From an uncultured bacterium (GTDB lineage: Bacteria; Patescibacteriota; JACMRA01), in assembly GCA_963704645.1 (NCBI GenBank), contig OY969926.1:768001-832000 (forward strand): a stretch of 64,000 nucleotides of DNA, in the 5' to 3' direction. Position 1 is the first letter of the stretch, and the number at the start of each line of letters is the position of its first letter. Below the pieces are notes generated by a model. The model searched no databases. It worked only from the letters and a program-made list of their open reading frames with translations, and was not told where the DNA came from. Positions 37,980 through 56,366 of this stretch are shown in pieces. The translations under genes and the position numbers were made by a program.

Positions 37980-39158
37980 TTAGATTGAGAGACTGGCTGT
38001 AACTGTGCTAAGCTTTTCAACAAATTCTTCAATCTCTTTTTGTGTTGTCATAATTCCTAAAGTTATTCTAATATTTGCCCCAGTTTCTTTTTTTCCAATT
38101 TCATTAAAAAGTGGGCTGTTATGAATTGCCCCGCTTCTACAATTGCTTCCGCTACTAACACAAATATTTTCTAAACTTAATGCTGTTAAAACTTCTTCTG
38201 TGTTTAAATTTGGTATGAAAATATTTAAATTATTTGCAGCTCTTTGTGAAAAATTATTTTCCTCATAAAACCCGTTAATTTGAATATTTGGAATTGCTTG
38301 TTTCAACTTTTTGTAAAGATAATCTCTTAAGTTTCCAACCTTTACTCGGTTTTTATCTAAATTAATTTGAGTAAGTTCCAAGGCTTGGGTGAATGTTGAA
38401 ATGCTCGCCACGTTTTCGGTTCCTGCTCTAATTCCACTTTCTTGGTGGCCACCTCGAATTTCTGATTTCAGGTTAATTTCTTTTTTATAAACCAGGCAGC
38501 CAACACCTTTTGGAGCATAAATTTTAGAGCTGCTGAAAGTTACTAAATCTACATTTTTTACTAATTCCTTTAAATCAATCCAATTTGGTGCCTGGGCTGA
38601 ATCTGATAAAATGTGTAACTTTGGTATTCCAAGTTTGGATCTTTCTAAATTTACTTCATCAGCAATTGCTTTAATTTCTTTTAACTGCTGAATTGTTCCA
38701 ATTTCGTTGTTTACACTTTGAATACAGATTAGATTAATTTCGTCAGTAATTTTTGATTGTAAGTCCTCTAGGTTAATAAAACCGTTGGAATCAACGACCA
38801 CTCTTTTTTGATTATCACCAGGAATATTTTCTAGAACGGAATCGTGTTCTAGGTTGGAGTATAAGATCTTTCCAGTTTGTGGCTCGCAAGCTTCGCCGCT
38901 ACGGGTTTTTTTGAAAGTTTGTAGTGCTAGGAAGTTCGCTTCGGTTATACTTGCAGTAAAAATTATGTTGTGGGTGTCTCTGGAAATTCCTAAAATATTG
39001 AAAAGTTTTAATCTACTTCTTTCTAGCTCCGCCTTAGCTAATTGTCCTGTTGGATGTGTAGCCGAAGGATTTCCCCAAAAGCTTTGACTTACTAAATTAT
39101 AATGCTCCATTAATTCAGGCAAAATAGGCGTTGAACCGGCGTAGTCCAGATAGATCAT
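37980..39158 (-). CDS. Cysteine desulfurase (IscS/NifS family)
   Basis: IYLDYAGSTP, GNPSATH, EHDSV, NNEIGTIQ, DSAQ, SSSKIYAPKG, RAGTEN, SSGSNC. Confidence 0.92.
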   Translation of the reverse strand: MIYLDYAGSTPILPELMEHYNLVSQSFWGNPSATHPTGQLAKAELERSRLKLFNILGISRDTHNIIFTASITEANFLALQTFKKTRSGEACEPQTGKILYSNLEHDSVLENIPGDNQKRVVVDSNGFINLEDLQSKITDEINLICIQSVNNEIGTIQQLKEIKAIADEVNLERSKLGIPKLHILSDSAQAPNWIDLKELVKNVDLVTFSSSKIYAPKGVGCLVYKKEINLKSEIRGGHQESGIRAGTENVASISTFTQALELTQINLDKNRVKVGNLRDYLYKKLKQAIPNIQINGFYEENNFSQRAANNLNIFIPNLNTEEVLTALSLENICVSSGSNCRSGAIHNSPLFNEIGKKETGANIRITLGIMTTQKEIEEFVEKLSTVTASLSI

Positions 39159-40053: not shown

Positions 40054-41187
40054 TTATTCAGCCTTTGTCAACTGTAAAGTACTGTAGGTTGCCAACTCAA
40101 AGTTTACAGGCCTGGTGGAAGTAGCAAAGAAAAAATCGGATTCACGTTTTACTGTGTTGAAAAATAAAAATTCTCGGGTGCTGTCTAATTCGTTAAACAA
40201 ATCGTCTAGCAACCATATCACACTTTGATTTTCAGGAAGGTTTCTTCTAACAATTTCTTTCCAATATAAAGCCAGTAAACGCATTTCACCCCTAGATAAA
40301 ATTTGGGTGGCGTTCTGGTAATTGCAAAGCCAGTTAAAATCGTCCCTATTAGCCCCGAATAAAACTTTACCTGCTCTCAGTTCTGCTTCCCACAAACTTT
40401 TGAAGTTAGTATTTCCAATAACTTTTTGTAGGAATAAGGTTTTTTCGTATTGGTTTAAACTGCTCCAGTTTTCCCAGTTAAAACGTTCGTCCATTTTCTT
40501 TAGACTTAGCTTAAAACCTTTGAAATTGGTTATCTCTAAATCAATCTGCCAGTTTTTAAAGCTAGAATTTATCCAGTTTCCAAACATGCTTTTGTGTTTA
40601 AATAGTTCGGCAAAAAAGTTGGCTCTGTAAACCCAAATGTCTAAACTTGCTTCATATAAGTCTTGATTAAGTTTATCTAAAATAATTTGGTCGGGTACTA
40701 TTCCTTCGCTTAAAAAGTTTTTAATTAACTGGGTTTTACCTTTAACCGCCCTGTCTAATTGTTCTAATAATTTGGAATATTGTTGCCCGTGAATTTCTGT
40801 TAAGCTATTATCTAAAACACCAATTTTTTGGGTTCTTGGTAAATTTAAAAAATAGTTATCTGCTGGAAGGTAAGTAATAATTTTAGGCAAAATAGTATTA
40901 TCAGGAAAGTTAATGGAAGTTACTAATCTGCCACTTGGGGCAATTTTACCAGTTACATTCCAGTTATCATCAATGCTTACTCCAAAATAATCACGTCCTT
41001 GCATTAAGTTATCTTTCCACTTACTTGCGGGCCAAGGTTTGCCAGTTAAAAGGCTATAATAAGCAGAAAGCAGGCTTGTTTTACCGCTTCCATTTTTATC
41101 GCACAATAAAAAAGAATGATTGGGTAAATAAAAATGCTGCTCTTCAAAACAACGCCAATAGTTCAAACTAATTTTTGTGACTGACAT
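40054..41187 (-). CDS. recF: DNA replication and repair protein RecF (divergent)
   Basis: NGSGKTS Walker A, GANRDD, LSRGE, LLDDLFNELD. Confidence 0.85.
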   Translation of the reverse strand: MSVTKISLNYWRCFEEQHFYLPNHSFLLCDKNGSGKTSLLSAYYSLLTGKPWPASKWKDNLMQGRDYFGVSIDDNWNVTGKIAPSGRLVTSINFPDNTILPKIITYLPADNYFLNLPRTQKIGVLDNSLTEIHGQQYSKLLEQLDRAVKGKTQLIKNFLSEGIVPDQIILDKLNQDLYEASLDIWVYRANFFAELFKHKSMFGNWINSSFKNWQIDLEITNFKGFKLSLKKMDERFNWENWSSLNQYEKTLFLQKVIGNTNFKSLWEAELRAGKVLFGANRDDFNWLCNYQNATQILSRGEMRLLALYWKEIVRRNLPENQSVIWLLDDLFNELDSTREFLFFNTVKRESDFFFATSTRPVNFELATYSTLQLTKAE

Positions 41188-41291
41188 TATTTAAGTTATG
41201 CATAAACGAGGTAAGTTTGCAAATTTTTGGGAAATGTGATTATGAAATTAGAGAACGGTAATTACTTTTAGACTAAGGATAAACAAATATA

Positions 41292-41603
41292 ATGTCTGTA
41301 AATTCTTCTAACTTGCCCGATTTAGCTGAATACCCTAACTTTAACGGTCACCAGATACCTTCTGACGTTATTGCCTTTTTGGTAGACGATGAAGGCAAGC
41401 TCATGGTTTTCAATGGTCATGGTTTGATTTTTCGTTCGAGTCATGATGCAGCATTTTATGTGAAGTCCCAACCTATAGGTATTTGTGAACATGATATACG
41501 ATTTAATGATTCGATTTCATTGAAGAAAATGTCATTTAGAAAGCTGACTCCATATATGCATCAATGTGTGCTTCTTTTTTTAGCTAATGGTATGAAGCCT
41601 TAG
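41292..41603 (+). CDS. Cassette orphan protein 1
   Basis: 103-aa ORF between repeated promoter and terminator. Confidence 0.7.
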   Translation: MSVNSSNLPDLAEYPNFNGHQIPSDVIAFLVDDEGKLMVFNGHGLIFRSSHDAAFYVKSQPIGICEHDIRFNDSISLKKMSFRKLTPYMHQCVLLFLANGMKP

Positions 41604-41807
41604 TCTGTATAGCCTCAACCATGGGGGCTATATTTTTTACCCAAAATTCTGTGCAAAGAAGGTGTAGCCTGCTAGCCAAGCTGGTAAAATGTTTTGGCCA
41701 AGCTGGGTTTTTTCTAGGTTTAGGTTGCTTAGCCTACATAATAGCTAGGTTTGCAAATTTTGGGAAAGTGTGATTGTTTCAAAAGGAACTTCATTTGGTA
41801 AAAGTTA

Positions 41808-42185
41808 ATGACCGATAGAACGATTGTGCTTTGCGACTATAATGTCACAGTTACAGAAAACTCAATTTTGTTTCTAACTGGATTGAAAAATAGTAAAATT
41901 GTCTTTGGTGAAAATGGTAAACTGTGTTTTTCTAGTCAAGCAGCTTTTTCAGAAGAATTACAGCCTAACATTTCTCAAGATTTGTGGAGTACAATTGCTC
42001 AGATTCTTGAAATATGTGACGTTTTGTCTGATCAGTTTAAAGAATTTTTTTCAAAACAGCAGGTTCTGGTGGCAAGCTTAAACGAAAGCTTAAACGAAAG
42101 CGGAGACTTGGTTGTTGAATTTGCTTCAATCAAACCTCTGTCTGAAGACGAAATGACGGCAACAATAAATATTTTTGTTCCTTAG
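41808..42185 (+). CDS. Cassette orphan protein 2, paralog of protein 3
   Basis: Shares MT.RTI, ELQPN.S, IAQI.E..D.L, LVASL.E with 42415-42777. Confidence 0.8.
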   Translation: MTDRTIVLCDYNVTVTENSILFLTGLKNSKIVFGENGKLCFSSQAAFSEELQPNISQDLWSTIAQILEICDVLSDQFKEFFSKQQVLVASLNESLNESGDLVVEFASIKPLSEDEMTATINIFVP

Positions 42186-42414
42186 TATGTAAAATAGCCT
42201 CAACTGTGGGGCTATATTTTTTACCCAAAATTCCGTACAAAGAAGGTGTATCCTGCTAGCCAGACTGGTAAAATGTTTTGGCCAAGTTGGGTTTTTTCTA
42301 GGTTCAGGTTGTTGTAAACCAATAAATTTTATTAATTAACTTGTGTGATACTCAAGTTTGCAAATTTTTGGTAAATGTGATTTAGAATAAATGAATTTAG
42401 TAGGTGGCAATTTT

Positions 42415-42777
42415 ATGACTGAAAGAACAATTAATTGTTCACAATTTTATCTAACAGTATCAAATGGCGGTCTTATATTTACTATTCCGTTTGCTAAGGA
42501 AGAAGTAAAGTTTACTGGTCAGCTATATTTTTTTGGGTCAGATGATTTTGGAAAAGAGCTTCAACCGAACGTTTCAGATCATACTAGAGGAATAATTGCT
42601 CAGATCGTTGAGCTTATTGATATTCTTTTTTCAGTAGGCTTTGAAAACTTTCCACGAAACAAAAAGTTGGTTGCAAGTTTAGATGAAGAAATGGAAAACT
42701 TGCTTATAGAATTTCCTACTAATAGAAATTTAACTGAAAATCAAATCGATCAGATTATCACTTTTATATCTCTTTGA
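42415..42777 (+). CDS. Cassette orphan protein 3, paralog of protein 2
   Basis: Start MTERTI aligns with MTDRTI of protein 2. Confidence 0.8.
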   Translation: MTERTINCSQFYLTVSNGGLIFTIPFAKEEVKFTGQLYFFGSDDFGKELQPNVSDHTRGIIAQIVELIDILFSVGFENFPRNKKLVASLDEEMENLLIEFPTNRNLTENQIDQIITFISL

Positions 42778-43017
42778 TTTTTAAATAAATATATCGGCCT
42801 TACAACCTTTTGTAGGGCTATTTTTTATCTAAAAATTTGTGCAAAAAAGGTGTAACCTGCTAGTCAGGCTGGTAAAATGTTTTGGCCAAGTTGGGGTTTT
42901 TCTAGGCTTATGTTGTTGTAATCGAATAATTTTATTAATCGAACAGTTCGTTGGATGTGAGTTTGCAAACTTTAAGAAAGTATGTTTTTCTTTAGAAGTT
43001 GAATTCAGAAAAAAGCT

Positions 43018-43356
43018 TTGACAACATCATTCCCTCAAATTGATGCAGATTTCATTGAAAATGCATCTTATTGGAACACTCTAGAACCAAATTATCATGT
43101 AGTTCCAAGAAATGCTGTAATTCTGGTGGTTTCCTCGCAAGATCATAGTAGGCTGTCTAAAATTCCAAAATGGGAGGTGGGAGGAATCATCTTGGTACAC
43201 CCCATGCTAGTATATTCTCCTCGGGCTAACTGGAAAGTAGATTTTGTTCAATACCCTGGCCCTGTACAGAGCCATATATGTTACTATAAAATTGAGTCTA
43301 ACAACCTGTGGAAAGAGGCTCTTGCTGAAGTTTATAGAGGAATTGAAGTATATTGA
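43018..43356 (+). CDS. Cassette orphan protein 4
   Basis: 112-aa ORF (TTG start) between repeated promoter and terminator. Confidence 0.65.
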   Translation: MTTSFPQIDADFIENASYWNTLEPNYHVVPRNAVILVVSSQDHSRLSKIPKWEVGGIILVHPMLVYSPRANWKVDFVQYPGPVQSHICYYKIESNNLWKEALAEVYRGIEVY

Positions 43357-43407
43357 ATATTTTTATTTGGTATAGCCTCAAACGTGGGGCTATTTTTTTT
43401 GTTAAAA

Positions 43408-44178
43408 TTATTCCAAACCTTTGGCAAAAAAGGTGTAGCCCGCCACCCATGCTGGTAAAATGTTTTGGCCAAGCTGGACTCGTTCTAATTTTAAATTGTT
43501 GTAAATTTCCTCTTCTTTTTGGCTGAATCCTCCTTCTGGGCCTGCTAGGCAGGATGTTGGTTTTGTTTGGATTGTAGAGTCTTCTGAATTATTTAATTTG
43601 TGGCTCGCAAGCTTCGCCGCTACAGGAACTACCGCCATGTCTAACGGCTTGACCCCTAAATAGGGGTGCTTTTTAACCTGGCTTTCCTCTTGAGATTTTA
43701 TTTCTTGGTGTAGCCATTTTGGTTTGTGTTCTTGTATTTTTTCTAGCCATGTTTTTTTGTCTAAGATTTCAATTTCTGGTATGAATAAGTTGTGGCTTTG
43801 TTCGCAGGAGCGTATTAGAATTTTGTTTAGTCTTTCTGTTTGGACGTTTTGTTTTGGCGAAAAACTTCCGTTGTAAATATAAATTTTTGTAACTGCTGCA
43901 ATAGGAGCTAGCTCGGCCAGTTTTTCTAAATAAAGTTTATCGGTTTGATGCTGAAAAAGTATTTTTTCTGGTGGTTTTATCTGGGTTTCAATCTCTAAAA
44001 ATTCCAATTTGTATTCACCTAATTTCTTATTTATTTCTACAATTTTAGCCTTCGCAAAACTTCCATCTAAATTGGTAAAAGTGTAAATATCACCTAATTT
44101 AGGGTGTAATGAGTGAAGGTGAGAAGAGTGAGTTTGTGAAAGTAGACCAGATTTTAGACTGGGTATATAAAGATACAT
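43408..44178 (-). CDS. rsmE: 16S rRNA m3U1498 methyltransferase RsmE (divergent, with repeat-derived insertion)
   Basis: SCEQS, GPEGGFS..E, LGQNIL SPOUT motifs. Confidence 0.85.
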   Translation of the reverse strand: MYLYIPSLKSGLLSQTHSSHLHSLHPKLGDIYTFTNLDGSFAKAKIVEINKKLGEYKLEFLEIETQIKPPEKILFQHQTDKLYLEKLAELAPIAAVTKIYIYNGSFSPKQNVQTERLNKILIRSCEQSHNLFIPEIEILDKKTWLEKIQEHKPKWLHQEIKSQEESQVKKHPYLGVKPLDMAVVPVAAKLASHKLNNSEDSTIQTKPTSCLAGPEGGFSQKEEEIYNNLKLERVQLGQNILPAWVAGYTFFAKGLE

Positions 44179-45080: not shown

Positions 45081-46328
45081 GTGCAATATAAACATTTTTA
45101 CAAACTTGGTCATCAGACTGCTGTAGGTTTAGCTGAAACTCAAAGCTTAAATTTAAATGTTGGTTTTACTAGTGGTGATTGGCTTTTTTCCAATGAAAAA
45201 ATTAACTTAGAAAAAAGTGGTTCCTTGGTTTTCGCAGGGGAAATTGAAAAACTTTGGTCAGAAAATTACCGTTTAATGGAGGACGAATTTTACCCTTTGC
45301 TAGAAGAAACTATTGGTAACTTTGTAAAGCAGCATGGAACCAAATCGGCTGGACTTGTGGTTCCACACAAATGGCAGAAAAAAAGCTTAATGGTAGCTAA
45401 GAAAGCTGGGCTTAAAAAGGTAAACGTACTGGCTATTCCTACAACTCCAAATTACGGCCATTGGAAACAGGCAAAAGTTTGGTGGATGTTAGTACAAGAA
45501 AAAGGTATAATTTGGCTCGCAAGAATTGACCAAATGGCCAACCAAGAATTTTGGTCAGACTTAGATATGAAACTACCCAAAGGTGATATGGCTAGGGGAA
45601 TTATTAACATGAAATTTGCCAGAACTTTACTTAATTTTACTGAAAAGAAACTAATTTGGGATCCTTTTGCGGGGCATGGAAGAGTAATTTTAGCAGGTCT
45701 AGATTTAAAAGAAAGGTTTTACGCTTCAGATATTAACGAGGAAAAACTAAATTTGGAAATTATTGAAAACTATAATTTTGCAACTACAATGTATAATCAG
45801 GAATTTTTACGCAAAGCCAGAATTGCCCATGCTAAGCTTCATAAAGATGAGCCTTTTGATGAAAAAACTGAAACCCCAGAACTGGGCTCTTTAGAAAAAG
45901 TATTTAGATTAGACGCCAACTATATCTCTTCTATTTTAGATAAGAAAAGTTTAACTTACGAACCAGAATTGTCGGCAGAGAACTTCAAAGACATGGCCAT
46001 TGTTACTGAAGGCTATTTAGGGTTTAATTTTAAAGGAGCACCACTGCCAATACAAATGAAAACTGAGTGGGAAAGCATTGCCAAAATTTGGTCGAACTTA
46101 CTAATTGGAGCGGGGAAGTTAGGTATAGCCGAAATTATTTGCTGTGTGCCATTTTACCAAGTTGAAGGAAAGAAATTGCTTCCTCAGTTCCTATCAAATT
46201 TAGATGGGCTAGGGGGATATAAACTATTATCTTTTAACGAAAATAGCTCAAGACCAGGATTAGAATACGCCAGACCACAAGCCAATGTGGGTCATTTGGT
46301 TTTGAAGTTTGTTTTGCCAAATGTGTAG
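45081..46328 (+). CDS. Putative RNA methyltransferase (Trm11/TrmG10-like)
   Basis: GIINMKFARTLLN, IWDPFAGHGRV, SDI, IVTEGYLG. Confidence 0.7.
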   Translation: MQYKHFYKLGHQTAVGLAETQSLNLNVGFTSGDWLFSNEKINLEKSGSLVFAGEIEKLWSENYRLMEDEFYPLLEETIGNFVKQHGTKSAGLVVPHKWQKKSLMVAKKAGLKKVNVLAIPTTPNYGHWKQAKVWWMLVQEKGIIWLARIDQMANQEFWSDLDMKLPKGDMARGIINMKFARTLLNFTEKKLIWDPFAGHGRVILAGLDLKERFYASDINEEKLNLEIIENYNFATTMYNQEFLRKARIAHAKLHKDEPFDEKTETPELGSLEKVFRLDANYISSILDKKSLTYEPELSAENFKDMAIVTEGYLGFNFKGAPLPIQMKTEWESIAKIWSNLLIGAGKLGIAEIICCVPFYQVEGKKLLPQFLSNLDGLGGYKLLSFNENSSRPGLEYARPQANVGHLVLKFVLPNV

Positions 46329-46373
46329 TTTTATGTATAACTAAATTAGTTGTTTCTATAGAGTTGTTTCATA

Positions 46374-46604
46374 GTGGCTTCTTTTTTTGCTAACTTAGAC
46401 GGAGTGTGGGTGCCTGTAGATTCAGATATAATGAAATGTGGTAAAAATTACTACTCATATGTAATTAGAGTAGCTGAGTTTGATAATACATTTATTGCTC
46501 ATGGTGCAAGTAAAGGATCAGGATATAACTTTTTGGCAGAAGGCCAAAGTCTTGAAGAATCTTTAGTTCAAGCAAAGAATAATTTTGATTTAATCTTACA
46601 ATAA
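46374..46604 (+). CDS. Small orphan cassette protein
   Basis: 76-aa ORF; promoter and ccctcc/ggaggg terminator related to those of 50580 and 51258. Confidence 0.6.
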   Translation: MASFFANLDGVWVPVDSDIMKCGKNYYSYVIRVAEFDNTFIAHGASKGSGYNFLAEGQSLEESLVQAKNNFDLILQ

Positions 46605-46664
46605 AAACCCTCCAACTGGAGGGAATTACTTTTGATATTTTTCTATGTGTTTTAAGAATTTGTA

Positions 46665-49256
46665 CTAGTTTCTGCTTCTGGTCCAAAGTTTGTTGTCTGT
46701 TCCACGGGCAAATTGATATTGCTTGCCGTTGAATGAAAACTGACTTGGTGTGTCTGAAATTGTAATGTTGTTACCCTGAATCCAGTTTGAATGAGCGGAA
46801 ATGTTGGTACTAGGATTGTGGTTTCTGTGATATAATTTGTTATCTATACCCATTCCAACTTCTGTAAATTGGTTTGCAAAAACACCAAAAGTTGCAGAAC
46901 GATTACTGTTTAAAGATTGCACCAAGTATGGATAACTAGATCCAAAGTCTGTAGTGTAGAAAGAATATGGACTATCTTTCTTTTTTACAGATATAGCTAA
47001 TTTACTACCAACTATAGCTGGTTTAGATATTTCTGTGTAAGTTGTGCTGTCTACTCTAGTCCAGCTTCCCCATACTTCAGACGTGTCTGTAGTTCTGTAG
47101 TATAAACCGAAATCTGTTCCAATTGCAATTTGATATAATTTAGAATTTGCTACGCCTCCTTGAACTGTAACGTTTACAGTAATATTTCCAGCTTTGTTCC
47201 AAGTAGGATTAACATAGTTAGTTGGGCTGAATGTGCTAAATTTAGCTACATAATTTCCATTGTCGGTTCCTGTGGCATACAACCAATATTTTCCATTAAA
47301 ATTGTGAACAGAAACTCTGTCTTTAATAGTTATCCATCCAAATCTTCTCCATTTTTCACCTCCAGCTTCACCGACCTTCCAAAAATATAACCCGTTGTCT
47401 GTACCTTGTGCGAATACATATAAATCACCGTTAGGATCTACACTTAAAGTAGGTGTGCTTTTGGCTGTAATTGCACCTAATCTTTGCCAATTACCAAACA
47501 CATTATTTGTATCCATGCTTCTTAAGTACAAACCAGAGTCTGTTCCAAAAGCTACCTGATACATTTTAGAATTATAAATAATTTCCTCTGTTTTACTAGC
47601 AATAGTTATAGGGTTAGCAGACCAAACTCCAAAGGGTTGATAGGAGATTACACTTGTAACAGTGTTGTAAGTTCCTCCATTAATACTTACTTGAACATTG
47701 CGTGCAGCTGTGGTATTTATGCTTCCCATTGGGATGCTTGGAAAAACTAATATATTGTCGAATACATATGCATTTGTAGTGCTATTTCCAGACCCTGCAA
47801 TTTGTGCTCTGGCTTCTGTTGGTAAGGTAAAAGTTAAACCTTTAACCAATAAGAAGCTACAGTAGTATGAATTTTGTTCTGCCGTACCTGTGGTGTTTTG
47901 AACACAATAAGGATTCTCGCTGCTAATATTGCTAGAAGTTATTACTGTGTCGGTATATGGGGTTGCACAGTTTAATTTAAATAAGTCGCTGATGCTGTAG
48001 TTTGTAAATACGAACTGATTTGAACTATTTCTTACAATTTGTAAATCGTAACCATTTAAACTTCCAACAGGCATAACATATTGCATGCTTGCATCAGATA
48101 TTTTGAATCTTTTGAAGTCGTTATGATTGTAAATGTAAATGTAGCTATTATTAGATTCTACAATTACTTTGTGCTCAATCATATCGCCAATAGTTTCAGT
48201 ATAAGTAAATGTTGGAGTAGTAGAGAATGGATAACTATCTGTGTCTGAAATTCTTTTTACGTTAACATTTCTACTTGTATTACCATAAGTTATATATACT
48301 CCACCGCCACTAACTCCATTTGGAACATCGGTTATTCCTAATAAAACATTTACGCTAGAATTACTGCTATACTGGAAATCTGCTTTCTTGGTTCCATCTG
48401 CGTTTAATATTACAATGTAATGATTATTGGAAGGGGTTGAGCTGTATTTTTTAACAAGTGGTATATAAATTAAACCAGAGTTGGAGATTACAGCCGAATA
48501 AATAGAGTATTCATGATCAGAACCATAATTAGTATTTTTAGGTAGGGTAAATGTGTTTAAAACAGAACCTGTTCCAGAAATTTTATCTATTTTAATATCT
48601 CCGGTTGATACAATATAAAAAATGTATAAATTACCTGCATCATCAATTTTTAAACCCTCAGAGTAAACACCTTTGGTGAAGCTGCTGGCACTGTAAATTA
48701 AATTATAGTTGCTTGTTCCATTTGGAACTTTGTAAACTTCATAGTTATTATTACTTAAATTGTAATTTAACTGAAAAGCATCTCCCGATGCGTTAGCAAC
48801 AATATTATCTGTGTATAAATTACTGCTAATAGTAATGGCAGTTTCAACACCTGAACTATTAATTCTTGAAAACTTACTTTGATCTGTACTATAATTATAA
48901 CCAGAAGTGTATGTATTTCCAACTCCATCTGCAGCTAAAGATACTGTTGATGGTGAAGATTGTGTGGCAAAATAATTAGCTGAACAAACATAGCTTGGGG
49001 CAACTGCTTGTAAACTTGTAGACTGTAATTTAGTAGTATTTTTTGCTGTAGATACATTATTTTTTTCCTCTTTACCCCAGCCAGTGTCTAGAACATTTTG
49101 TGGAAGTACTGACCTAGATTTCTGAGGGCTAGAGTAGGTAGGGGTTGAAATAGGTGTATTTACTTCACCTTCAGCAGAAACCTGAAGTGAGGGAGATAGG
49201 GTTAATGCTAAACCTGCTACTAGCAGCGAACTTAGCAATTTGTATGCAAATGACAT
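46665..49256 (-). CDS. Secreted protein with N-terminal beta-propeller and C-terminal lectin-like (PLL/fucose-lectin-type) repeats
   Basis: Signal peptide; repeated A.GTD.GLY...W units. Confidence 0.75.
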   Translation of the reverse strand: MSFAYKLLSSLLVAGLALTLSPSLQVSAEGEVNTPISTPTYSSPQKSRSVLPQNVLDTGWGKEEKNNVSTAKNTTKLQSTSLQAVAPSYVCSANYFATQSSPSTVSLAADGVGNTYTSGYNYSTDQSKFSRINSSGVETAITISSNLYTDNIVANASGDAFQLNYNLSNNNYEVYKVPNGTSNYNLIYSASSFTKGVYSEGLKIDDAGNLYIFYIVSTGDIKIDKISGTGSVLNTFTLPKNTNYGSDHEYSIYSAVISNSGLIYIPLVKKYSSTPSNNHYIVILNADGTKKADFQYSSNSSVNVLLGITDVPNGVSGGGVYITYGNTSRNVNVKRISDTDSYPFSTTPTFTYTETIGDMIEHKVIVESNNSYIYIYNHNDFKRFKISDASMQYVMPVGSLNGYDLQIVRNSSNQFVFTNYSISDLFKLNCATPYTDTVITSSNISSENPYCVQNTTGTAEQNSYYCSFLLVKGLTFTLPTEARAQIAGSGNSTTNAYVFDNILVFPSIPMGSINTTAARNVQVSINGGTYNTVTSVISYQPFGVWSANPITIASKTEEIIYNSKMYQVAFGTDSGLYLRSMDTNNVFGNWQRLGAITAKSTPTLSVDPNGDLYVFAQGTDNGLYFWKVGEAGGEKWRRFGWITIKDRVSVHNFNGKYWLYATGTDNGNYVAKFSTFSPTNYVNPTWNKAGNITVNVTVQGGVANSKLYQIAIGTDFGLYYRTTDTSEVWGSWTRVDSTTYTEISKPAIVGSKLAISVKKKDSPYSFYTTDFGSSYPYLVQSLNSNRSATFGVFANQFTEVGMGIDNKLYHRNHNPSTNISAHSNWIQGNNITISDTPSQFSFNGKQYQFARGTDNKLWTRSRN

Positions 49257-49336
49257 AGTTTGTTATAAACATACAAATTATAGTTTGTCTAGGTAAGTTT
49301 GAAGTGTTAGTTTAGGTTGCTAAATTGTTGTTGTAG

Positions 49337-50475
49337 TGAACAAGTCCAAACACATATGATACCAAAGGGTGGTAGATTAATAATCCTAAATCTACTATCA
49401 TATGATCATGTCTTACACTTTGGAAGATAAATTTAAAATAATTGAATACTCATTTAAGCATGGTATTAATTCTACATTAGAAGCATTATCTCTAGATTCA
49501 AATCGTAAACTTTCCAGAATAACTTTAATTAGGTGGAGGAAGAAATGGAGAAAAAGTTGTGAACTTAATTATGGAGCTGGTAACAAATACGATTTAAAGG
49601 ATAAAAGCAAAAGACCTAATAAATTTAGACAGTCAAATGTACAAGGGAGAATACTTGAGTTTATTCAACAAACTAGATTGCAATATCCTAATCTAGGTAA
49701 AGACAAACTTAAAGTATTGTTAGATGATTACTGTGCAGAACAAAATCTAAAAGAAACAAGTAAAACACTAAAAACTATTTCAATTTCAACTATCGGCAGA
49801 ATAATATCTACTTTTAAAGATCAAAGAATAATACCAGTCTACAAATACTCAAAGCAAGTCTATTTAGACGGTAGAACAGGAAGTATTAAACAAAGACTAC
49901 TAAAACCTAGGAAGCAAGTTAAAACCAGAAGAAAAGAATACCAGCCTAATAGCCCAGGAGATCTAATTCAATTAGACGCAATAACCTTTTATCTTAATGG
50001 AGTAAAAAGATATTTAATCTGTGCTGTAGATCTAGTTAGTAGATATTCTTTCGTATATGCTTACAAAACATTAAGTAGTAATAGTACAAAAGACTTCTTC
50101 TTAAGAATGCAAGATGTATTCCCTTACCAGATTAAAAGAGTTCAGACAGACAATGGACAAGAAAATCATAAGAACTTTGATGAACTGTTAAAATTTAAAG
50201 ATATTACTCATTTCTGGAACTATCCTAAATCTCCTAAAATGAATGCTTACATAGAAAGATTCAATAGAAGTGTGGAAGAAGAGTTTGCTAATTATAATCT
50301 ATGGATACTAAGAGATGATATACAAGCTTTTAATCTAAAATTAATCATGTACCTAGACTTCTACAATAACCAAAGACCACATCTGGGTTTAAAAAGAGAT
50401 ATTGGACAATTTATACCACCAATGAAATACCTACAACAATACCATCCTAAGTATCATATGTAGTGAACGGGTACA
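49337..50475 (+). mobile_element. IS481-family insertion sequence
   Basis: Imperfect ~25-bp terminal inverted repeats sharing acatatgatac; TGTAG direct repeat at 49332-49336 and 50476-50480. Confidence 0.8.
49402..50463 (+). CDS. IS481-family DDE transposase (integrase core)
   Basis: PGDLIQLD, AVDLVSR, VQTDNG.E, PKMNAYIERFNR, YNNQRPHLGL. Confidence 0.92.
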   Translation: MIMSYTLEDKFKIIEYSFKHGINSTLEALSLDSNRKLSRITLIRWRKKWRKSCELNYGAGNKYDLKDKSKRPNKFRQSNVQGRILEFIQQTRLQYPNLGKDKLKVLLDDYCAEQNLKETSKTLKTISISTIGRIISTFKDQRIIPVYKYSKQVYLDGRTGSIKQRLLKPRKQVKTRRKEYQPNSPGDLIQLDAITFYLNGVKRYLICAVDLVSRYSFVYAYKTLSSNSTKDFFLRMQDVFPYQIKRVQTDNGQENHKNFDELLKFKDITHFWNYPKSPKMNAYIERFNRSVEEEFANYNLWILRDDIQAFNLKLIMYLDFYNNQRPHLGLKRDIGQFIPPMKYLQQYHPKYHM

Positions 50476-50494
50476 TGTAGACATAATAAATAAT

Positions 50495-50554
50495 TCTTGC
50501 AAAAACAGTTTTTATATGCATAACTAAAATTAGTTTCTGTTTTAGTACAGGAAA
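50495..50554 (+). promoter_or_regulatory. 60-bp promoter block, identical to 51173-51232
   Basis: tcttgcaaaaacagtttttatatgcataactaaaattagtttctgttttagtacaggaaa; TTGCAA -35-like box. Confidence 0.8.
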
Positions 50555-50579
50555 TGTTAAATTTAAAAAGTGAGGTTTT

Positions 50580-51038
50580 ATGAGTACAGATTTGGAATAT
50601 TACAGACCTGAAAATCTAGAAGAAGTTCTTACTTCTTACAGTGTAGAAGAACTCCAATACATCGCTTCAAACCGTCCAGATATTATATTGGGGTGGCAAG
50701 AATTGTACAGACAAAATCTTTTCTCACACATTGTAGATGCTGGGTTTTCAGACAATCTGGGGCGGGTCTTGGTTAGCCTTATTGGTCTAGATCAGCGAGT
50801 CCGAAATGTTTTCCCCAAACCATGCTGTAATATTTGGGGATCTTATGAATTCCTTGCTGATCAGCTAAATCAGTGTGGTATAAACAGTAGAGCGGCTTGG
50901 TTCCTTTTTGCCAATCCTCATCTCTTGGATATGAACATAATTCAATTGCATTCTGAGCTTTTGCATAATCGCGAATTTGAAGAGGTTGCAGAGAGCATTC
51001 TTGGGCGTAAAGTTTTGTACGCAGAGGATCTGTTGTAA
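50580..51038 (+). CDS. Orphan cassette protein
   Basis: 152-aa ORF, GAGG RBS-like motif, followed by ccctcc/ggaggg terminator. Confidence 0.7.
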   Translation: MSTDLEYYRPENLEEVLTSYSVEELQYIASNRPDIILGWQELYRQNLFSHIVDAGFSDNLGRVLVSLIGLDQRVRNVFPKPCCNIWGSYEFLADQLNQCGINSRAAWFLFANPHLLDMNIIQLHSELLHNREFEEVAESILGRKVLYAEDLL

Positions 51039-51103
51039 TATAGCAATTGTCGAAGAGATTAATTTTATTTATCTTTTGTTAACCTTTTTAAAATTAACAA
51101 TCT

Positions 51104-51131
51104 AACCCTCCAGCCGGAGGGAATTTCTTTT
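51104..51131 (+). terminator. Intrinsic terminator, family shared with 46606 and 51610
   Basis: ccctcc-agcc-ggaggg followed by T-rich tail. Confidence 0.75.
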
Positions 51132-51257
51132 GAGTGAAAAACTAACAAAGTTTAACTAGACTAAAGATTAACTCTTGCAAAAACAGTTTTTATATGCATA
51201 ACTAAAATTAGTTTCTGTTTTAGTACAGGAAAGTTTAATTTAAAAAAAGGTAAAGCT

Positions 51258-51593
51258 TTGACTATTAAAATCTACGGTTTGCTAGCAGTTGAACAACAAC
51301 TTAGCCTTTTAGATTTGGGAGTTCCAAACTTCCCCTTCCCTCCGTACCTAGCAAGAATAACTGTTCTCCCAGAGAATATACGATATTCTTCACCTTGGTT
51401 TGACAAATGTACTAGAAATGGTGACGGAAGCCTTCCAATTTTCACAATTGTAAACCTTAATAGGTACACGGCTGACTGGTGTGGAAATTATGTTATAGCT
51501 ACGGTAGAATATAGACAAATTACTCCGTATATGGAAGGTCCAGGTTTTATATCAAGAGCGATTGCTGATCCAAATCTTTCACCTTGGACATAA
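51258..51593 (+). CDS. Orphan cassette protein
   Basis: 111-aa ORF (TTG start) between the duplicated promoter and terminator. Confidence 0.65.
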   Translation: MTIKIYGLLAVEQQLSLLDLGVPNFPFPPYLARITVLPENIRYSSPWFDKCTRNGDGSLPIFTIVNLNRYTADWCGNYVIATVEYRQITPYMEGPGFISRAIADPNLSPWT

Positions 51594-51664
51594 TAATTTC
51601 TCAACAACAAACCCCTCCAACCGGAGGGAATTTATTTTGGGTGGAGAATATTAATTTTTTTAAC

Positions 51665-52156
51665 TTATTTTTTTCTTCCAAGTCTTGCAGCTAAGTGAGC
51701 GAATGCTTTGTTTCCAGCGGCTGTTTGGTGAACAGAGTTACGTTTGGCAACTGCTACACCTTCGCTGTTAAAAGATTCCTTTAAAACTTGTTTAAGTTTT
51801 TGACTCATTGGCCTGCCTTTCATTTTTCTGGCCGCATCGGTAATCCAAGTTAAAGCCAATCTTAAACCTCTGGCTTCGTATGGTTCCATTGGAACTTGGT
51901 AGTTGGCTCCTCCAACACGAACGCTTTTAACTTCAATTGTAGGTCTAACGTTGTTAACTGCAGTTTCTAGTAATTCTAAAGGTGCAACTTGTAATTCTTC
52001 ACTAGCTGAATTTAAAGCTTGCGTAACAATTTTTGAAGCAACAGTTTTTTTACCATCCCACATAATTCTGTTAATTAATCTGGAAACTAAAATGCTGTGA
52101 AATGTACTATCTGGTGAAATAGTAGGTCTTTTTAATACTCGGGCGCGTCTGGACAT
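51665..52156 (-). CDS. rpsG: 30S ribosomal protein S7
   Basis: IMWDGKK, EVKSVRVGGANYQVP, NKAFAH. Confidence 0.97.
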   Translation of the reverse strand: MSRRARVLKRPTISPDSTFHSILVSRLINRIMWDGKKTVASKIVTQALNSASEELQVAPLELLETAVNNVRPTIEVKSVRVGGANYQVPMEPYEARGLRLALTWITDAARKMKGRPMSQKLKQVLKESFNSEGVAVAKRNSVHQTAAGNKAFAHLAARLGRKK

Positions 52157-52733: not shown

Positions 52734-54698
52734 TTATTTTGGTAATTCAAAAACGTCTTCGTTGGAGATATTGTATTCTTTGCTGTAGTTAAAAGACTTG
52801 GCTTCGTGCTTGGCTTCAACTTCTTTACGTGCAGTTTTTAAGGCTGAAAGTTTGCCCGCTAAGTTAACGTTTTTAATAGGTGCTGTTACAGAATCGGCTA
52901 GGTTGTTAATATTCTGAATTTTTAGGTTATCATTTTTAATATTAGTTTTTTCTGAGTTATTTTGAATAAATTCAGTTTTGTTGGTTTTAATTGGTCCAGT
53001 ATTATTTCCATTACTTTCTCTTGTACCAGCATCTAAATATGGGTTGAATTTCTTTTTTCTAGGCTTAAATTCTTCACCAGAATTCTGATTGTTTTGAAAG
53101 TTGTCGTTTATATTCTGACCTTCTTTAAAGTTTCTCGGTTTATACTCCCTTTGGTTGTTTTGAGAAAAATTATCTCTGTTTTGATTGTTATTGTATGGTC
53201 TGTCTCCATTATTATATCCCCCATTAGAATTTCCGCGGTTATAATTGTTTTGACCAGCATATCCACCTTGTCCTCCAGAATAATTTCCTGTATTTGGTCT
53301 GTAATTTTGTCCGCCAGAAAAGCCTTCTTTGCTTCCTAATTGCTCTTCTTCTATTCCAAATTCTTTTTCTAACCATTCGTTAATAATTTTCTTTACCTCA
53401 ACTTTTGGTTTACCATAAATTTGCCTAGAAAGCTCTGTAACAATTTGTAATCTTCCACCAACCTTACTAAAAATATCTGCCATTGTGTTGGCTAAAAACG
53501 GAGCTGGAGCTTTACCTTCAATTAATAACTTTAAAGCCACTTGGGTTTTGTTAAGCGAAATTAATTGTTGGGAAGTAAATACTGGTTCAAATTCCTTTTC
53601 AATTCTGTAAGCATCATCAGAGCCAATTCTGAAGGCTATCATGGTTCCAACGTTTCCAAACACAGCATTACGTACTTTTTCGTTGCCGCTTTCGGTTAAT
53701 TGGGAAATATATTGATGAGCTAAAATTAAACTTAAACGATATTTTCTAGCTTCAGATAAAATTGTAGCAAAACTATCGGTGGTAAAGTTTTGGAACTCAT
53801 CTACGTATAAATAAAAATCTTTTCTATCTTCTTCGTTAGGAATATCTACTCTACTCATGGCGGCTAGCTGAATTTTGGTAATGAGCAAACTTCCAAGTAA
53901 GCTGGAATTGTCTTCCCCAAGTCTACCTTTAGACAAATTAACTATTAAAATTTTCCTGTTATCCATTATATCTCTAAGGTCGAAAGTGCTTTTTTCTTGG
54001 CCTAAAATGTTCCTAATTAAATCGGAAGAGAAAAACTGACCAATTTTATTTAATACAGGAGCAATGGCTTCGGTTCTATATTTATCGTTAAAACTGGCAA
54101 ATTCCTTAACCCAAAAGTTCTTCACCATGGGGTCTTTAACATTGCCTACAATATAGCTTCTAAATTCCTTGTCGGTAAGCATTCTTACAACACCCAGCAA
54201 AGTATTACCAGGAGTTTCTAATAAAGCTAGTAAAGTATTGTTCAAAATATATTCCATTCTAGCAGACCAAGTTCCAGCCCAAATTCTGTTAAAAACGGCC
54301 ATCATTCCAGAGGCAATTAAAAAGTGTTCTTCCCCGTGATTGGCTTCTAACATGTTAAAACCTAGCGGAAAATCGGTGTCTGACGGGTTGAAATATATTA
54401 CATCGTTTTGTCTGTGAGCAGGAATTCTGTCTAAAACATATTCGGCTAAATCTCCGTGCGGGTCCATAACACAGGCACCGTAGCCGTTGTAAATATCTTG
54501 CAAAATCATGTTTTCAAGCAGGGTGGTTTTACCCATACCAGTTTTACCCAAAATGTAGACATGCCTTCTTCTATCATCTTTTAAAATTCCAAAAGTTTTA
54601 GTTTGCCCGCGAACATTTGCTGTTCCAAAATAACACAAATCTGGACGAAGACTTAAGGAAAGTGGGCTGGTTGGGGCTTCAGGAGCAGTTTGATTCAT
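52734..54698 (-). CDS. VirD4/TraG-like (type IV coupling/HerA-FtsK superfamily) ATPase with N/G-rich low-complexity tail
   Basis: RRRHVYILGKTGMGKT, DPHGD, LYVDEFQNF, SEARKY, LAHQYISQL, FGNVGT. Confidence 0.88.
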   Translation of the reverse strand: MNQTAPEAPTSPLSLSLRPDLCYFGTANVRGQTKTFGILKDDRRRHVYILGKTGMGKTTLLENMILQDIYNGYGACVMDPHGDLAEYVLDRIPAHRQNDVIYFNPSDTDFPLGFNMLEANHGEEHFLIASGMMAVFNRIWAGTWSARMEYILNNTLLALLETPGNTLLGVVRMLTDKEFRSYIVGNVKDPMVKNFWVKEFASFNDKYRTEAIAPVLNKIGQFFSSDLIRNILGQEKSTFDLRDIMDNRKILIVNLSKGRLGEDNSSLLGSLLITKIQLAAMSRVDIPNEEDRKDFYLYVDEFQNFTTDSFATILSEARKYRLSLILAHQYISQLTESGNEKVRNAVFGNVGTMIAFRIGSDDAYRIEKEFEPVFTSQQLISLNKTQVALKLLIEGKAPAPFLANTMADIFSKVGGRLQIVTELSRQIYGKPKVEVKKIINEWLEKEFGIEEEQLGSKEGFSGGQNYRPNTGNYSGGQGGYAGQNNYNRGNSNGGYNNGDRPYNNNQNRDNFSQNNQREYKPRNFKEGQNINDNFQNNQNSGEEFKPRKKKFNPYLDAGTRESNGNNTGPIKTNKTEFIQNNSEKTNIKNDNLKIQNINNLADSVTAPIKNVNLAGKLSALKTARKEVEAKHEAKSFNYSKEYNISNEDVFELPK

Positions 54699-55693: not shown

Positions 55694-55960
55694 ATGCAAA
55701 GCATTTCCTCTAAAAATTTACGTTTGAACTTGGGTAAAATACTTCAATTGGTAGCAAATGGTAATGAATACGAAATTACTTTTCAAAAGAAAGTTGTGGG
55801 TAAAATTGTTCCTGTAAATTCTAATGTAAAATCTGGTAAAAAAATGGTTCAGTTTTTGGAATCGGAAAAATTTGCAAGTCAGAAAATTCCTGAAAAGTTA
55901 AAAAATTATTCAAATTTCAAAGATTTTCACAAAGAAAATTATAGTAAATATGATAATTAA
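55694..55960 (+). CDS. Phd/YefM-family antitoxin
   Basis: ISSKNLRLNLGKILQLVANGNEYEIT...VGKIVP. Confidence 0.82.
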   Translation: MQSISSKNLRLNLGKILQLVANGNEYEITFQKKVVGKIVPVNSNVKSGKKMVQFLESEKFASQKIPEKLKNYSNFKDFHKENYSKYDN

Positions 55961-56366
55961 AGATTATACGGAAGAAGAGAATGAAGTTATGAAAGAAAGT
56001 ATTTTGTTAGATGCAAGTGCATTGTTAGAATTATATTTACGAAGACCTAAAAGCTTAGAAATTCATAATATTTTAAAAGAATTTGAGGAAGTTAACATTA
56101 CTTTAATTTCAGTGGGAGTTCTTTTTTATTACGCTGAAAAGGAAAAGCTAGATATACAAATTGCTGAATTTTTAGTGGAAACTTGTAACATTTTAACTAT
56201 GTCTGAATCTACCTACAAAATGGCTAAGCAAATTTATAATAAGAAAGATTTGGAAGATGCTTTGCAAATTGCTTGTGCGAAGGAAAACAACATTGAAACA
56301 GTCTTAACTTTAGATAAGCAAATGGCTAAAAAATATGGTGAGATTGTGAATATTGTTTTGGTTTGA
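55950..56366 (+). CDS. PIN-domain (VapC-like) toxin
   Basis: ILLDASAL, DLEDALQIACA, LTLD; overlaps the antitoxin. Confidence 0.85.
   Translation: MIIKDYTEEENEVMKESILLDASALLELYLRRPKSLEIHNILKEFEEVNITLISVGVLFYYAEKEKLDIQIAEFLVETCNILTMSESTYKMAKQIYNKKDLEDALQIACAKENNIETVLTLDKQMAKKYGEIVNIVLV

Follow-up and report, generated by a model that had tools for sequence, protein, structure and literature searches.

We analyzed a 64,000-nt stretch of DNA (hereafter the window) from an uncultured bacterium of the Patescibacteriota lineage JACMRA01 (assembly GCA_963704645.1, contig OY969926.1, positions 768,001 to 832,000 of the forward strand). The genome to which the window belongs, termed G000 here, is a single contig of 1.27 Mb with 33% GC. 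On the plus strand, the window contains three single-gene cassettes, A (46314-46640), B (50478-51141) and C (51157-51648), in which a small open reading frame (ORF), the cargo, lies between an upstream and a hairpin module that recur from cassette to cassette. Together, we call these two modules the shell. In the explanation that we favor, and to which we give somewhat better than even chances, each cassette consists of one copy of a genus-specific promoter-leader, an unrelated small ORF and a terminator hairpin module, and the cassettes are shuffled by homologous recombination. The shells would then probably serve as recombination handles for the shuffling of accessory genes. An initial annotation of this DNA had noticed cassettes B and C and had suggested that ORFs are swapped into a reusable expression frame. 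Cassette A, which is a third and more diverged copy, had been missed.

The most striking part of the repeat lies upstream of cargos B and C. Positions 50495-50554 and 51173-51232 are identical in 60 out of 60 bases, precisely as the initial annotation had stated. When up to three mismatches were allowed, this 60-mer matched two places in the window and none in 100 shuffles. A search of the whole 1.27-Mb genome recovered the same two places, and no third copy was found genome-wide with up to 14 substitutions. The similarity between the two upstream regions extends beyond the exact core (50478-50569 versus 51157-51246, 92% over 92 nt), and the complete promoter-leader modules cover 50478-50579 in cassette B and 51157-51257 in cassette C. 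Module B contains TTGCAA (50497), TGC-ATAACT (about 50517-50525), a leader that begins with AAAATTAGTTT and a ribosome-binding site GTGAGG. Each module runs from a sharp 5' edge to about 10 nt or less before the start codon, and the repeat resumes around each hairpin. The hairpins, CCCTCCAGCCGGAGGG at 51106-51121 and CCCTCCAACCGGAGGG at 51613-51628, share the same stem sequence, differ at one loop position and are each followed by AATTT.TTTTG. Hence, the initial annotation was right in describing near-identical terminators that differ only in the loop, while the start positions it gave (51104 and 51610) were off by 2-3 nt. Both hairpins were picked up by a terminator scan and have a folding energy of about -11 to -12 kcal/mol each. 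The terminator-like modules around them, 51096-51141 in cassette B (with AATTTCTTTTG behind the hairpin) and 51603-51648 in cassette C, are 83% identical over 46-47 nt.

Hairpins of the type CCCTCC-N4-GGAGGGAATT (GGAGGG) occur four times in the genome. Three of them are found inside one 5-kb stretch (46608, 51106 and 51613) and have common flanks; the fourth, located elsewhere, is a bare match to the stem motif. The hairpin at 46608-46623 belongs to cassette A. Alignment placed the promoter-like module of this cassette at 46314-46373, where TTGCCA-N14-TGT-ATAACT is followed by AAATTAGTT, and it shares 68% identity with module B when the two are compared from the -35 box on. Cargo A (46374-46604) is an orphan ORF of 76 aa with a GTG start and without a clear ribosome-binding site. 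Its terminator-like module (46598-46640) lies between cargo A and a convergent gene for an 863-aa protein and is 77% identical to that of cassette B and 72% identical to that of cassette C. Cargo B (50580-51038) encodes a protein of 152 aa from an ATG start and has distant homologues. Cargo C (51258-51593) is an orphan ORF of 111 aa that starts with TTG behind a weak AAGG ribosome-binding site. Between the two, the segment 51096-51141 and the promoter module of cassette C form one terminator-plus-promoter junction of ~150 nt. The terminator-like module of cassette C also folds on the minus strand (-19.5 kcal/mol, z = -3.1). It probably acts in both directions, because it is located 3' of the convergent S7 gene as well (51665-52156, minus strand).

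We compared the enclosed ORFs with each other. BLASTP of B against C returned zero alignments at E <= 100, nucleotide BLAST of the ORF bodies revealed no similarity between the cargos, and no paralogues of A, B or C were found within the genome. A profile-profile comparison with hhalign, using a three-member profile of the cargo B family, gave a probability of 0.14% against C and 0.12% against A. Single-sequence AlphaFold2 (AF2) models of B (pLDDT 52, all alpha) and C (pLDDT 34, mostly coil and strand) are poor and provide weak evidence for a difference in structural class. Cargos A, B and C are, judged by these comparisons, unrelated, in line with the dissimilarity that had initially been noticed for the 152-aa and 111-aa proteins.

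A second genome of the same genus, G001, carries the shell with another cargo. Its contig C33 is collinear with the window from 35 to 46 kb. The cassette slot is anchored on the left by a conserved 415-aa gene (45081-46328, plus strand; weak methyltransferase-like Pfam matches below cut-off), which is present in 23 of 26 family genomes and has an orthologue of 414 aa and 62% identity in G001. Homology between the two genes stops four codons before the stop codon, which is the start of the -35 box of cassette A. In G001, the 414-aa orthologue is followed by a promoter TCTTGCGAAA...AAATTAGTTT, by a 120-aa ORF of the cargo B family (B') and by the hairpin CCCTCCAAAAGGAGGG with a T-rich tail; the promoter module reads TCTTGCGAAATATGTAATTATGTGTATTATTTAAATTAGTTT. 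The ribosome-binding site GTGAGGTT is the same in front of B' and in cassette B, and the start context is conserved, too. The same slot in G000 is occupied by the unrelated cargo A, and the B gene is found 4 kb further on. Within our favored explanation, it appears somewhat more probable than the contrary that a B-family gene in the shell is ancestral to the genus and that A and C are lineage-specific orphan cargos. Among the 26 family genomes, the promoter pattern was recovered in the tested register in this genus alone, twice in G000 and once in G001, with 0 control matches, and the CCCTCC-type hairpin with matching flanks is confined to this genus. Single matches to the hairpin motif in the genomes G017 and G023 were rejected as shell copies, their flanks being unrelated. 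Downstream of the 415-aa gene, the content was different in each of 16 other family genomes, which are too diverged to inform on the shell.

How could such an arrangement work? The modules would drive and insulate the expression of whatever sits between them and, since they are repeated, would double as patches of homology. Homologous recombination, either intrachromosomal or with DNA taken up from relatives, could insert, replace and stack small accessory genes without a dedicated recombinase. A trace of recombination may be preserved in the exact core itself. Outside of it, the shells of B and C agree in 12/19, 18/25 and 39/47 columns, adding up to 69/91 (76%). The zero divergence of the flanks that the initial annotation had reported thus holds for the 60-nt core and does not extend to the remaining shell. 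At 76% identity, the chance of 60 matches in a row is 0.76^60, or ~7e-8 by our own arithmetic. Since the shells are only 76% identical outside the core, they are likely old, which makes the perfect core look like the product of a recent conversion or recombination. Furthermore, the orthologous promoters of G000 and G001 share 59% identity, and constraint on the sequence alone therefore fails to explain the 60 identical positions. Most plausibly, the core of B and C is the tract of a recent gene conversion or crossover that was superimposed on older shells.

The function of the upstream module was judged from its motifs, and we infer that the 60-mer comprises a promoter. Among the hexamers in front of genes in this genome, TTGACA shows the strongest enrichment (139 observed versus 28 expected in 573 upstream regions), and the modules contain TTGCAA or TTGCCA, a 17-nt spacer with TG, and ATAACT. 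The pattern TTGC[AC]A-N14-TGN-ATAACT has four matches in the genome. Three are cassettes A, B and C, and the fourth is a minus-strand region at 41222 in front of a conserved AAA-ATPase gene. This AAA/RecF-like gene (40054-41187, minus strand) carries TTGCAAA-N-TTTATGCATAACT in its upstream region (41222-41150) and, 22 nt further on, AAAATTAGTTTG. Between the -35 box and about +7, the region is ~72% identical to the B/C promoter, and it is conserved in G001 as well. The shell promoter may have been derived from it, or both may carry a shared regulatory signal. The initial annotation had considered that the 60-mer could instead be a structured RNA or the end of an element. As for a structured RNA, Rfam yielded 0 matches at E <= 1 between 41000 and 52300, and the small hairpin fold of the leader (-5.9 kcal/mol, z = -0.28) is no more stable than that of shuffled sequences. 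The leader 21-mer AAATTAGTTTCTGTTTTAGTA was found exactly in two genomes from a different genus within the family (L006 and L007, genus g7, about position 1500), where it sits between TTGACAA and TTGTCAA upstream of a gene for an HtrA-like protease. It was further found in four unrelated public genome records and four metagenome contigs. We rejected these occurrences as shell relatives since their flanks are unrelated to the 60-mer; they are probably due to chance or represent an unrelated short motif.

Similar upstream regions in front of unrelated genes are not rare. More than 4000 families of them have been described in prokaryotes, and the definition of putative mobile promoters (PMPs) requires that, within one genome, dissimilar coding sequences share 50 nt or more at 80% identity or higher between positions -150 and -50 (Nijveen, Matus-Garcia and van Passel 2012, PMC3575422). 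The B/C pair falls within this definition, with about 87% identity over about 53 nt by our own count (50478-50530 versus 51157-51208). One could therefore argue that only promoters and terminators are reused at this locus: they would have been duplicated, or captured in front of pre-existing genes, co-regulation through a single sigma factor or regulator would be selected for and keep them identical, and the cassettes would never have moved. At the promoter of the AAA-ATPase gene, both the motif AAATTAGTTT and the TGCATAACT box are found again, hinting toward a shared regulatory signal of this kind. However, the 5' and the 3' module are both common to all three cassettes, and the matching slot of G001 contains a different cargo in the same shell. 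In addition, the low identity of the orthologous promoters across the genus shows that selection does not demand an exact sequence. Compared to PMPs, this locus has a matching terminator module at the 3' side, units in tandem and another cargo at the sister slot, and it therefore points to dynamics of whole cassettes rather than to promoter movement alone. We regard reuse without movement as the strongest competitor of cassette shuffling, albeit a fairly unlikely one.

A mobile element is indeed present next to cassette B. An insertion sequence (IS) with an rve-type transposase (ORF 49402-50463; Pfam rve and rve_3) occupies 49337-50475 on the plus strand and abuts the promoter copy. Its target duplication of 5 bp, TGTAG, is found at 49332-49336 and 50476-50480. 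The genome contains four 100%-identical copies of this IS (G000 464062, 653207, 817337 and 865680), each with a different intact 5-bp duplication, which points to recent transposition. The proximity could suggest that the repeats are ends or remnants of mobile elements, be it an outward promoter derived from the IS, a miniature inverted-repeat transposable element (MITE), a repetitive extragenic palindrome (REP), a bacterial interspersed mosaic element (BIME) or an attC site, with the ORFs as passengers. We consider this very improbable. The insertion point of the IS is the 5' edge of promoter module B, and the IS is not part of the shell. It stops at 50475, as established by its four copies with their target duplications, and the 60-mer is absent from the three copies elsewhere in the genome. 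The 60-mer is therefore not an IS end, and we rejected this reading. Likewise, neither terminal inverted repeats nor target duplications were found at the cassettes, the hairpin lacks a GTAG head, and the 60-mer with two copies and the hairpin module with three are not what would be expected of a MITE, REP or BIME.

An array of small, mostly orphan ORFs that are separated by a hairpin-forming repeat also resembles an integron or a chromosomal cassette array. Integron cassettes are typically promoterless, and their attC sites, about 55-140 nt long, are imperfect palindromes that contain extrahelical bases and R''/L''/L'/R' boxes. By eye, the hairpin described here, which measures 16 nt, appears as a perfect 6-bp stem with a 4-nt loop and no GTTRRRY core, and each cassette is equipped with its own promoter-like module. 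No site-specific recombinase was found nearby; the genome encodes a single tyrosine recombinase (PF00589), at 883.6-884.4 kb and thus ~64 kb away. Because there is no integron integrase near the array, the integron reading was rejected.

Could the repeat be an artefact of assembly or polishing, in which a repeat was collapsed or homogenized? An independent DNA run (X1) covers only parts of the region, with six short identical contigs at 2-3x, none of which spans the repeats. Nevertheless, these contigs match 51366-51950 without differences, including 51585-51735 across the terminator of cassette C. Moreover, the two copies differ in their flanks and ORFs, the divergence is graded, and a homologous shell exists in G001, which was assembled independently. 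An artefact is therefore extremely unlikely.

We next consider the cargos as genes. Cargo B has a metagenomic relative, P0003 (172 aa), with 29% identity and a library-wide E of 6.6e-6 in an exhaustive HMMER search of 1.84 billion representatives. The two-sequence profile of B and P0003 recovered the 120-aa homologue B' of G001 with an E of 8.4e-14. B' matches P0003 with an E of 1e-17 and is 23% identical to B. The family is hence tiny, with two further members besides cargo B, and the cargo B protein is predicted to be all-helical. By this evidence cargo B is a real gene, one of atypical composition (GC content at third codon positions of 0.353 versus 0.249 +/- 0.032 for the genome). A search of the PDB with the B-family profile gave no match, no B-family relative was found in viral contigs, and scans of B' and P0003 against PADLOC and NCBIfam returned noise only. 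The ESM Atlas contained no usable match for B or C. For the seven small cargos (A76, B152, C111 and R1-R4, the last four from the neighboring array at 41.2-43.5 kb), only sub-threshold noise was obtained from Pfam, PHROGs, PADLOC and NCBIfam. Cargo A had one NCBIfam match far below cut-off and no Pfam, PHROG or PADLOC family. Against a database of 5.8 billion clusters, A and C matched only themselves; both had only chance-level matches in a sample of 401 genomes of the phylum, and C had no match among the 26 family genomes.

These results leave room for the view that cargo C, and perhaps cargo A, is no protein gene at all and that a duplicated promoter-terminator pair brackets a non-coding stretch, a chance or de novo frame, or a non-coding RNA. 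Apart from its lack of homologues, cargo C has a TTG start, a weak ribosome-binding site and a low pLDDT of its AF2 model, and its recognition score by a language model is within the range of shuffled sequences. Its coding score of 0.10 was reached by 32 of 362 shadow ORFs. Cargo A scored 0.24, which is typical of host genes and was reached by 0/362, while 121/362 were as high as cargo B. However, array cargo R1 scored as low as 0.01 and has an 86%-identical orthologue in G001, and the coding score is therefore not discriminating. For A, B and C the annotated frame scored best of all frames, far above the other five in the case of C, and Rfam gave no match. The open frame of C from stop to stop comprises 142 codons, for which we estimate a chance of ~2e-5 per frame at 33% GC. 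A non-coding cargo thus seems improbable, if less so than a mobile-element origin of the repeats.

The closest known counterparts of the cassettes are found in phages. T4-type phages contain terminator-promoter motifs, the promoter early stem-loops (PeSLs), and recombination between these is reported to cause the insertion, deletion and replacement of ORFans and even to give rise to mini-circles (Arbiol et al. 2010, PMC2839356; Comeau et al. 2014, PMC4122927). In PeSLs, a composite unit of terminator hairpin and then sigma-70-type promoter is repeated around small ORFans in a variable region, and the B-C junction (51096-51246) is laid out in the same way, with a 6-bp GC hairpin and a T-rich tail followed 54 nt on by TTGCAA-N17-ATAACT. 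This likeness is one of structure only. Several near-identical PeSL copies flank ORFans, and it is at these copies that close relatives differ by indels or replacements; here, three shells enclose three unrelated cargos, two of them orphan, and the G001 slot differs, with one genome as comparator. PeSL repeats were likewise proposed to be sites of homologous recombination, with no dedicated recombinase. On the contrary, our locus is chromosomal in Patescibacteria (S7, rsmE and DnaB context), has no phage genes nearby and found no match in the phage collection. It has three copies compared to dozens in phages and an off-consensus promoter compared to a consensus sigma-70 promoter. Mini-circles and the activity of promoter and terminator are experimental findings for PeSLs, while the promoters and terminators of this locus are predicted from sequence.

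Phage morons are independent units of promoter, ORF and terminator. Each cassette resembles them as an autonomous unit of one small gene with promoter-like and terminator-like signals, placed between conserved genes. It differs in that the locus is not in a prophage, and morons are not defined by common promoter or terminator sequences. Our best reading is that the locus represents chromosomal gene cassettes, free of a recombinase, that would resemble PeSL cassettes and phage morons. One literature search, covering titles and the openings of abstracts, found no description of such cassettes in Patescibacteria. According to PMC10187176, Saccharibacteria are naturally competent, and recombination with imported DNA is therefore plausible in the phylum.

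Several points weigh against cassette shuffling. Reuse of the shell, as proposed in the initial annotation, is borne out by three copies here and one in G001, but the swapping of ORFs is deduced from one comparator genome, which is already diverged (S7 92% identical in aa, 415-aa gene 62%). Synteny to the right of the slot is broken. There, G001 has secY, which is located 100 kb away in G000, and G000 has the 863-aa surface-type gene, the IS, cassettes B and C and the solitary S7 gene. Therefore, the left flank alone is demonstrably orthologous. Because no further shell copy was found in public genome, metagenome, phage and plasmid collections, a population-wide cassette pool is only assumed. 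A generic sigma-70 scan left the putative promoter uncalled, and its -10 box (ATAACT or CATAAC) is a poor match to TATAAT. The activity of promoter and terminator is deduced from their sequences. Cargos A and C have no homologue anywhere searched, and C may not be a functional protein gene, given its TTG start and a coding score that chance ORFs reach. Finally, the evidence would fit ORFs that moved into shells and shells that were copied next to ORFs alike. What is observed are the repeats with their copy numbers and boundaries, the unrelated cargos and the other cargo in the matching slot of G001, whereas the mechanism of recombination and the direction of the events are proposals.

Comparable layouts were observed elsewhere in the genome. 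A second array in the window (41200-43510) comprises four small plus-strand ORFs at 41292-41603, 41808-42185, 42391-42777 and 43018-43356 (103, 125, 128 and 112 aa). ORFs 2 and 3 are related (33% aa identity); the other two are unrelated. The junctions of this array are ~130 nt long and 85-92% identical. Each contains three elements: a terminator hairpin ATAGCCTCAAC..GGGGCTAT-T7, a duplicate of the final ~90 nt of rsmE, which is a convergent gene on the minus strand (43408-44178), and a copy of the promoter-like box of the first ORF, GTTTGCAAATTTTTGG.AA.TGTGAT. In G001, ORF 1 alone is present between the same flanking genes and is 86% identical. We scanned the genome for intergenic repeats of 45 nt or more that form local pairs with 80% identity or more and a distance below 3 kb. 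This recovered 12 further loci, and the neighboring ORFs were non-homologous in 8/12 and paralogous in 4/12, the latter including three ~800-aa genes at 1.256-1.264 Mb. All are direct repeats with periods of 330-2600 nt, for instance 36539/37055, 527278/527780, 737621/738437, 955089/955624 and 1115404/1116005. At G000:36.5-37.6 kb, inspection by eye revealed one upstream module before unrelated ORFs of 125 and 150 aa with similar terminators. A dispersed pair of shells (locus L018; G000:C1:1081844-1082383, plus strand, and 1044892-1045443, minus strand) has its two members in opposite orientation at a distance of 37 kb. They have ~60 nt in common on the upstream side (85% identity) and ~60 nt on the downstream side (93%), and the enclosed ORFs of ~134 aa are dissimilar. 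Some 100 nt upstream of one of these ORFs we found a 19/21 match to the leader motif of B and C, directly after a TATGAT box.

The surroundings of the cassettes contain further features. The S7 gene is single-copy and solitary, without S12 or EF-G neighbors, and its neighbors on both sides are unlike those in G001. Homology to G001 extends from ~48 nt before its start codon to its stop codon and no further, which gives the impression that this essential gene, too, was relocated as a single-gene unit. The 863-aa gene (46665-49256, minus strand) encodes a secreted-type protein with repeated GTDNGLY-like motifs; it has no counterpart at this place in G001 and has three paralogues at G000 562-569 kb, with 69-77% nucleotide identity in the C-terminal third. 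A TrwB/TraG-like type IV secretion coupling protein (52734-54698, minus strand), whose tail is of low complexity and rich in N, Q and G, and a PIN-domain protein (55950-56366) adjoin the cassettes, and paralogues of both are found near G000 508-512 kb. A repeat of ~30 nt at 38876-38911 and 43595-43626, inside the aminotransferase and rsmE ORFs, occurs at 10 or more places in the genome with 90-100% identity and may be a REP-type repeat.

The pattern as such is already known from the literature, both in T4-like phages and, under the name of mobile promoters, in bacteria at large, and this locus is a clear but small example of it. A wider proposal, which we put forward tentatively and consider less likely than not to be correct, is that Patescibacteria run a chromosomal counterpart of integrons and PeSLs that needs no recombinase. 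Short lineage-specific promoter-leader and terminator modules would act as sockets in which orphan genes are inserted, exchanged and stacked by homologous recombination that draws on DNA uptake, and this would be a main route to new small proteins in these reduced genomes. In part, the sockets could be built by duplicated ends of neighboring core genes, as with the 3' end of rsmE in the 41.2-43.5 kb array. If the shells do act as recombination handles that bring their own expression signals, the cassette pool of a population could be sampled, in analogy to integrons, by a PCR between the promoter core and the terminator module. The modules would then be candidate native expression parts for the genetics of Patescibacteria, for which few promoters are known. 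Such handles would also explain the turnover of strain-specific orphan genes in bacteria that have genomes of about 1 Mb and few mobile elements.

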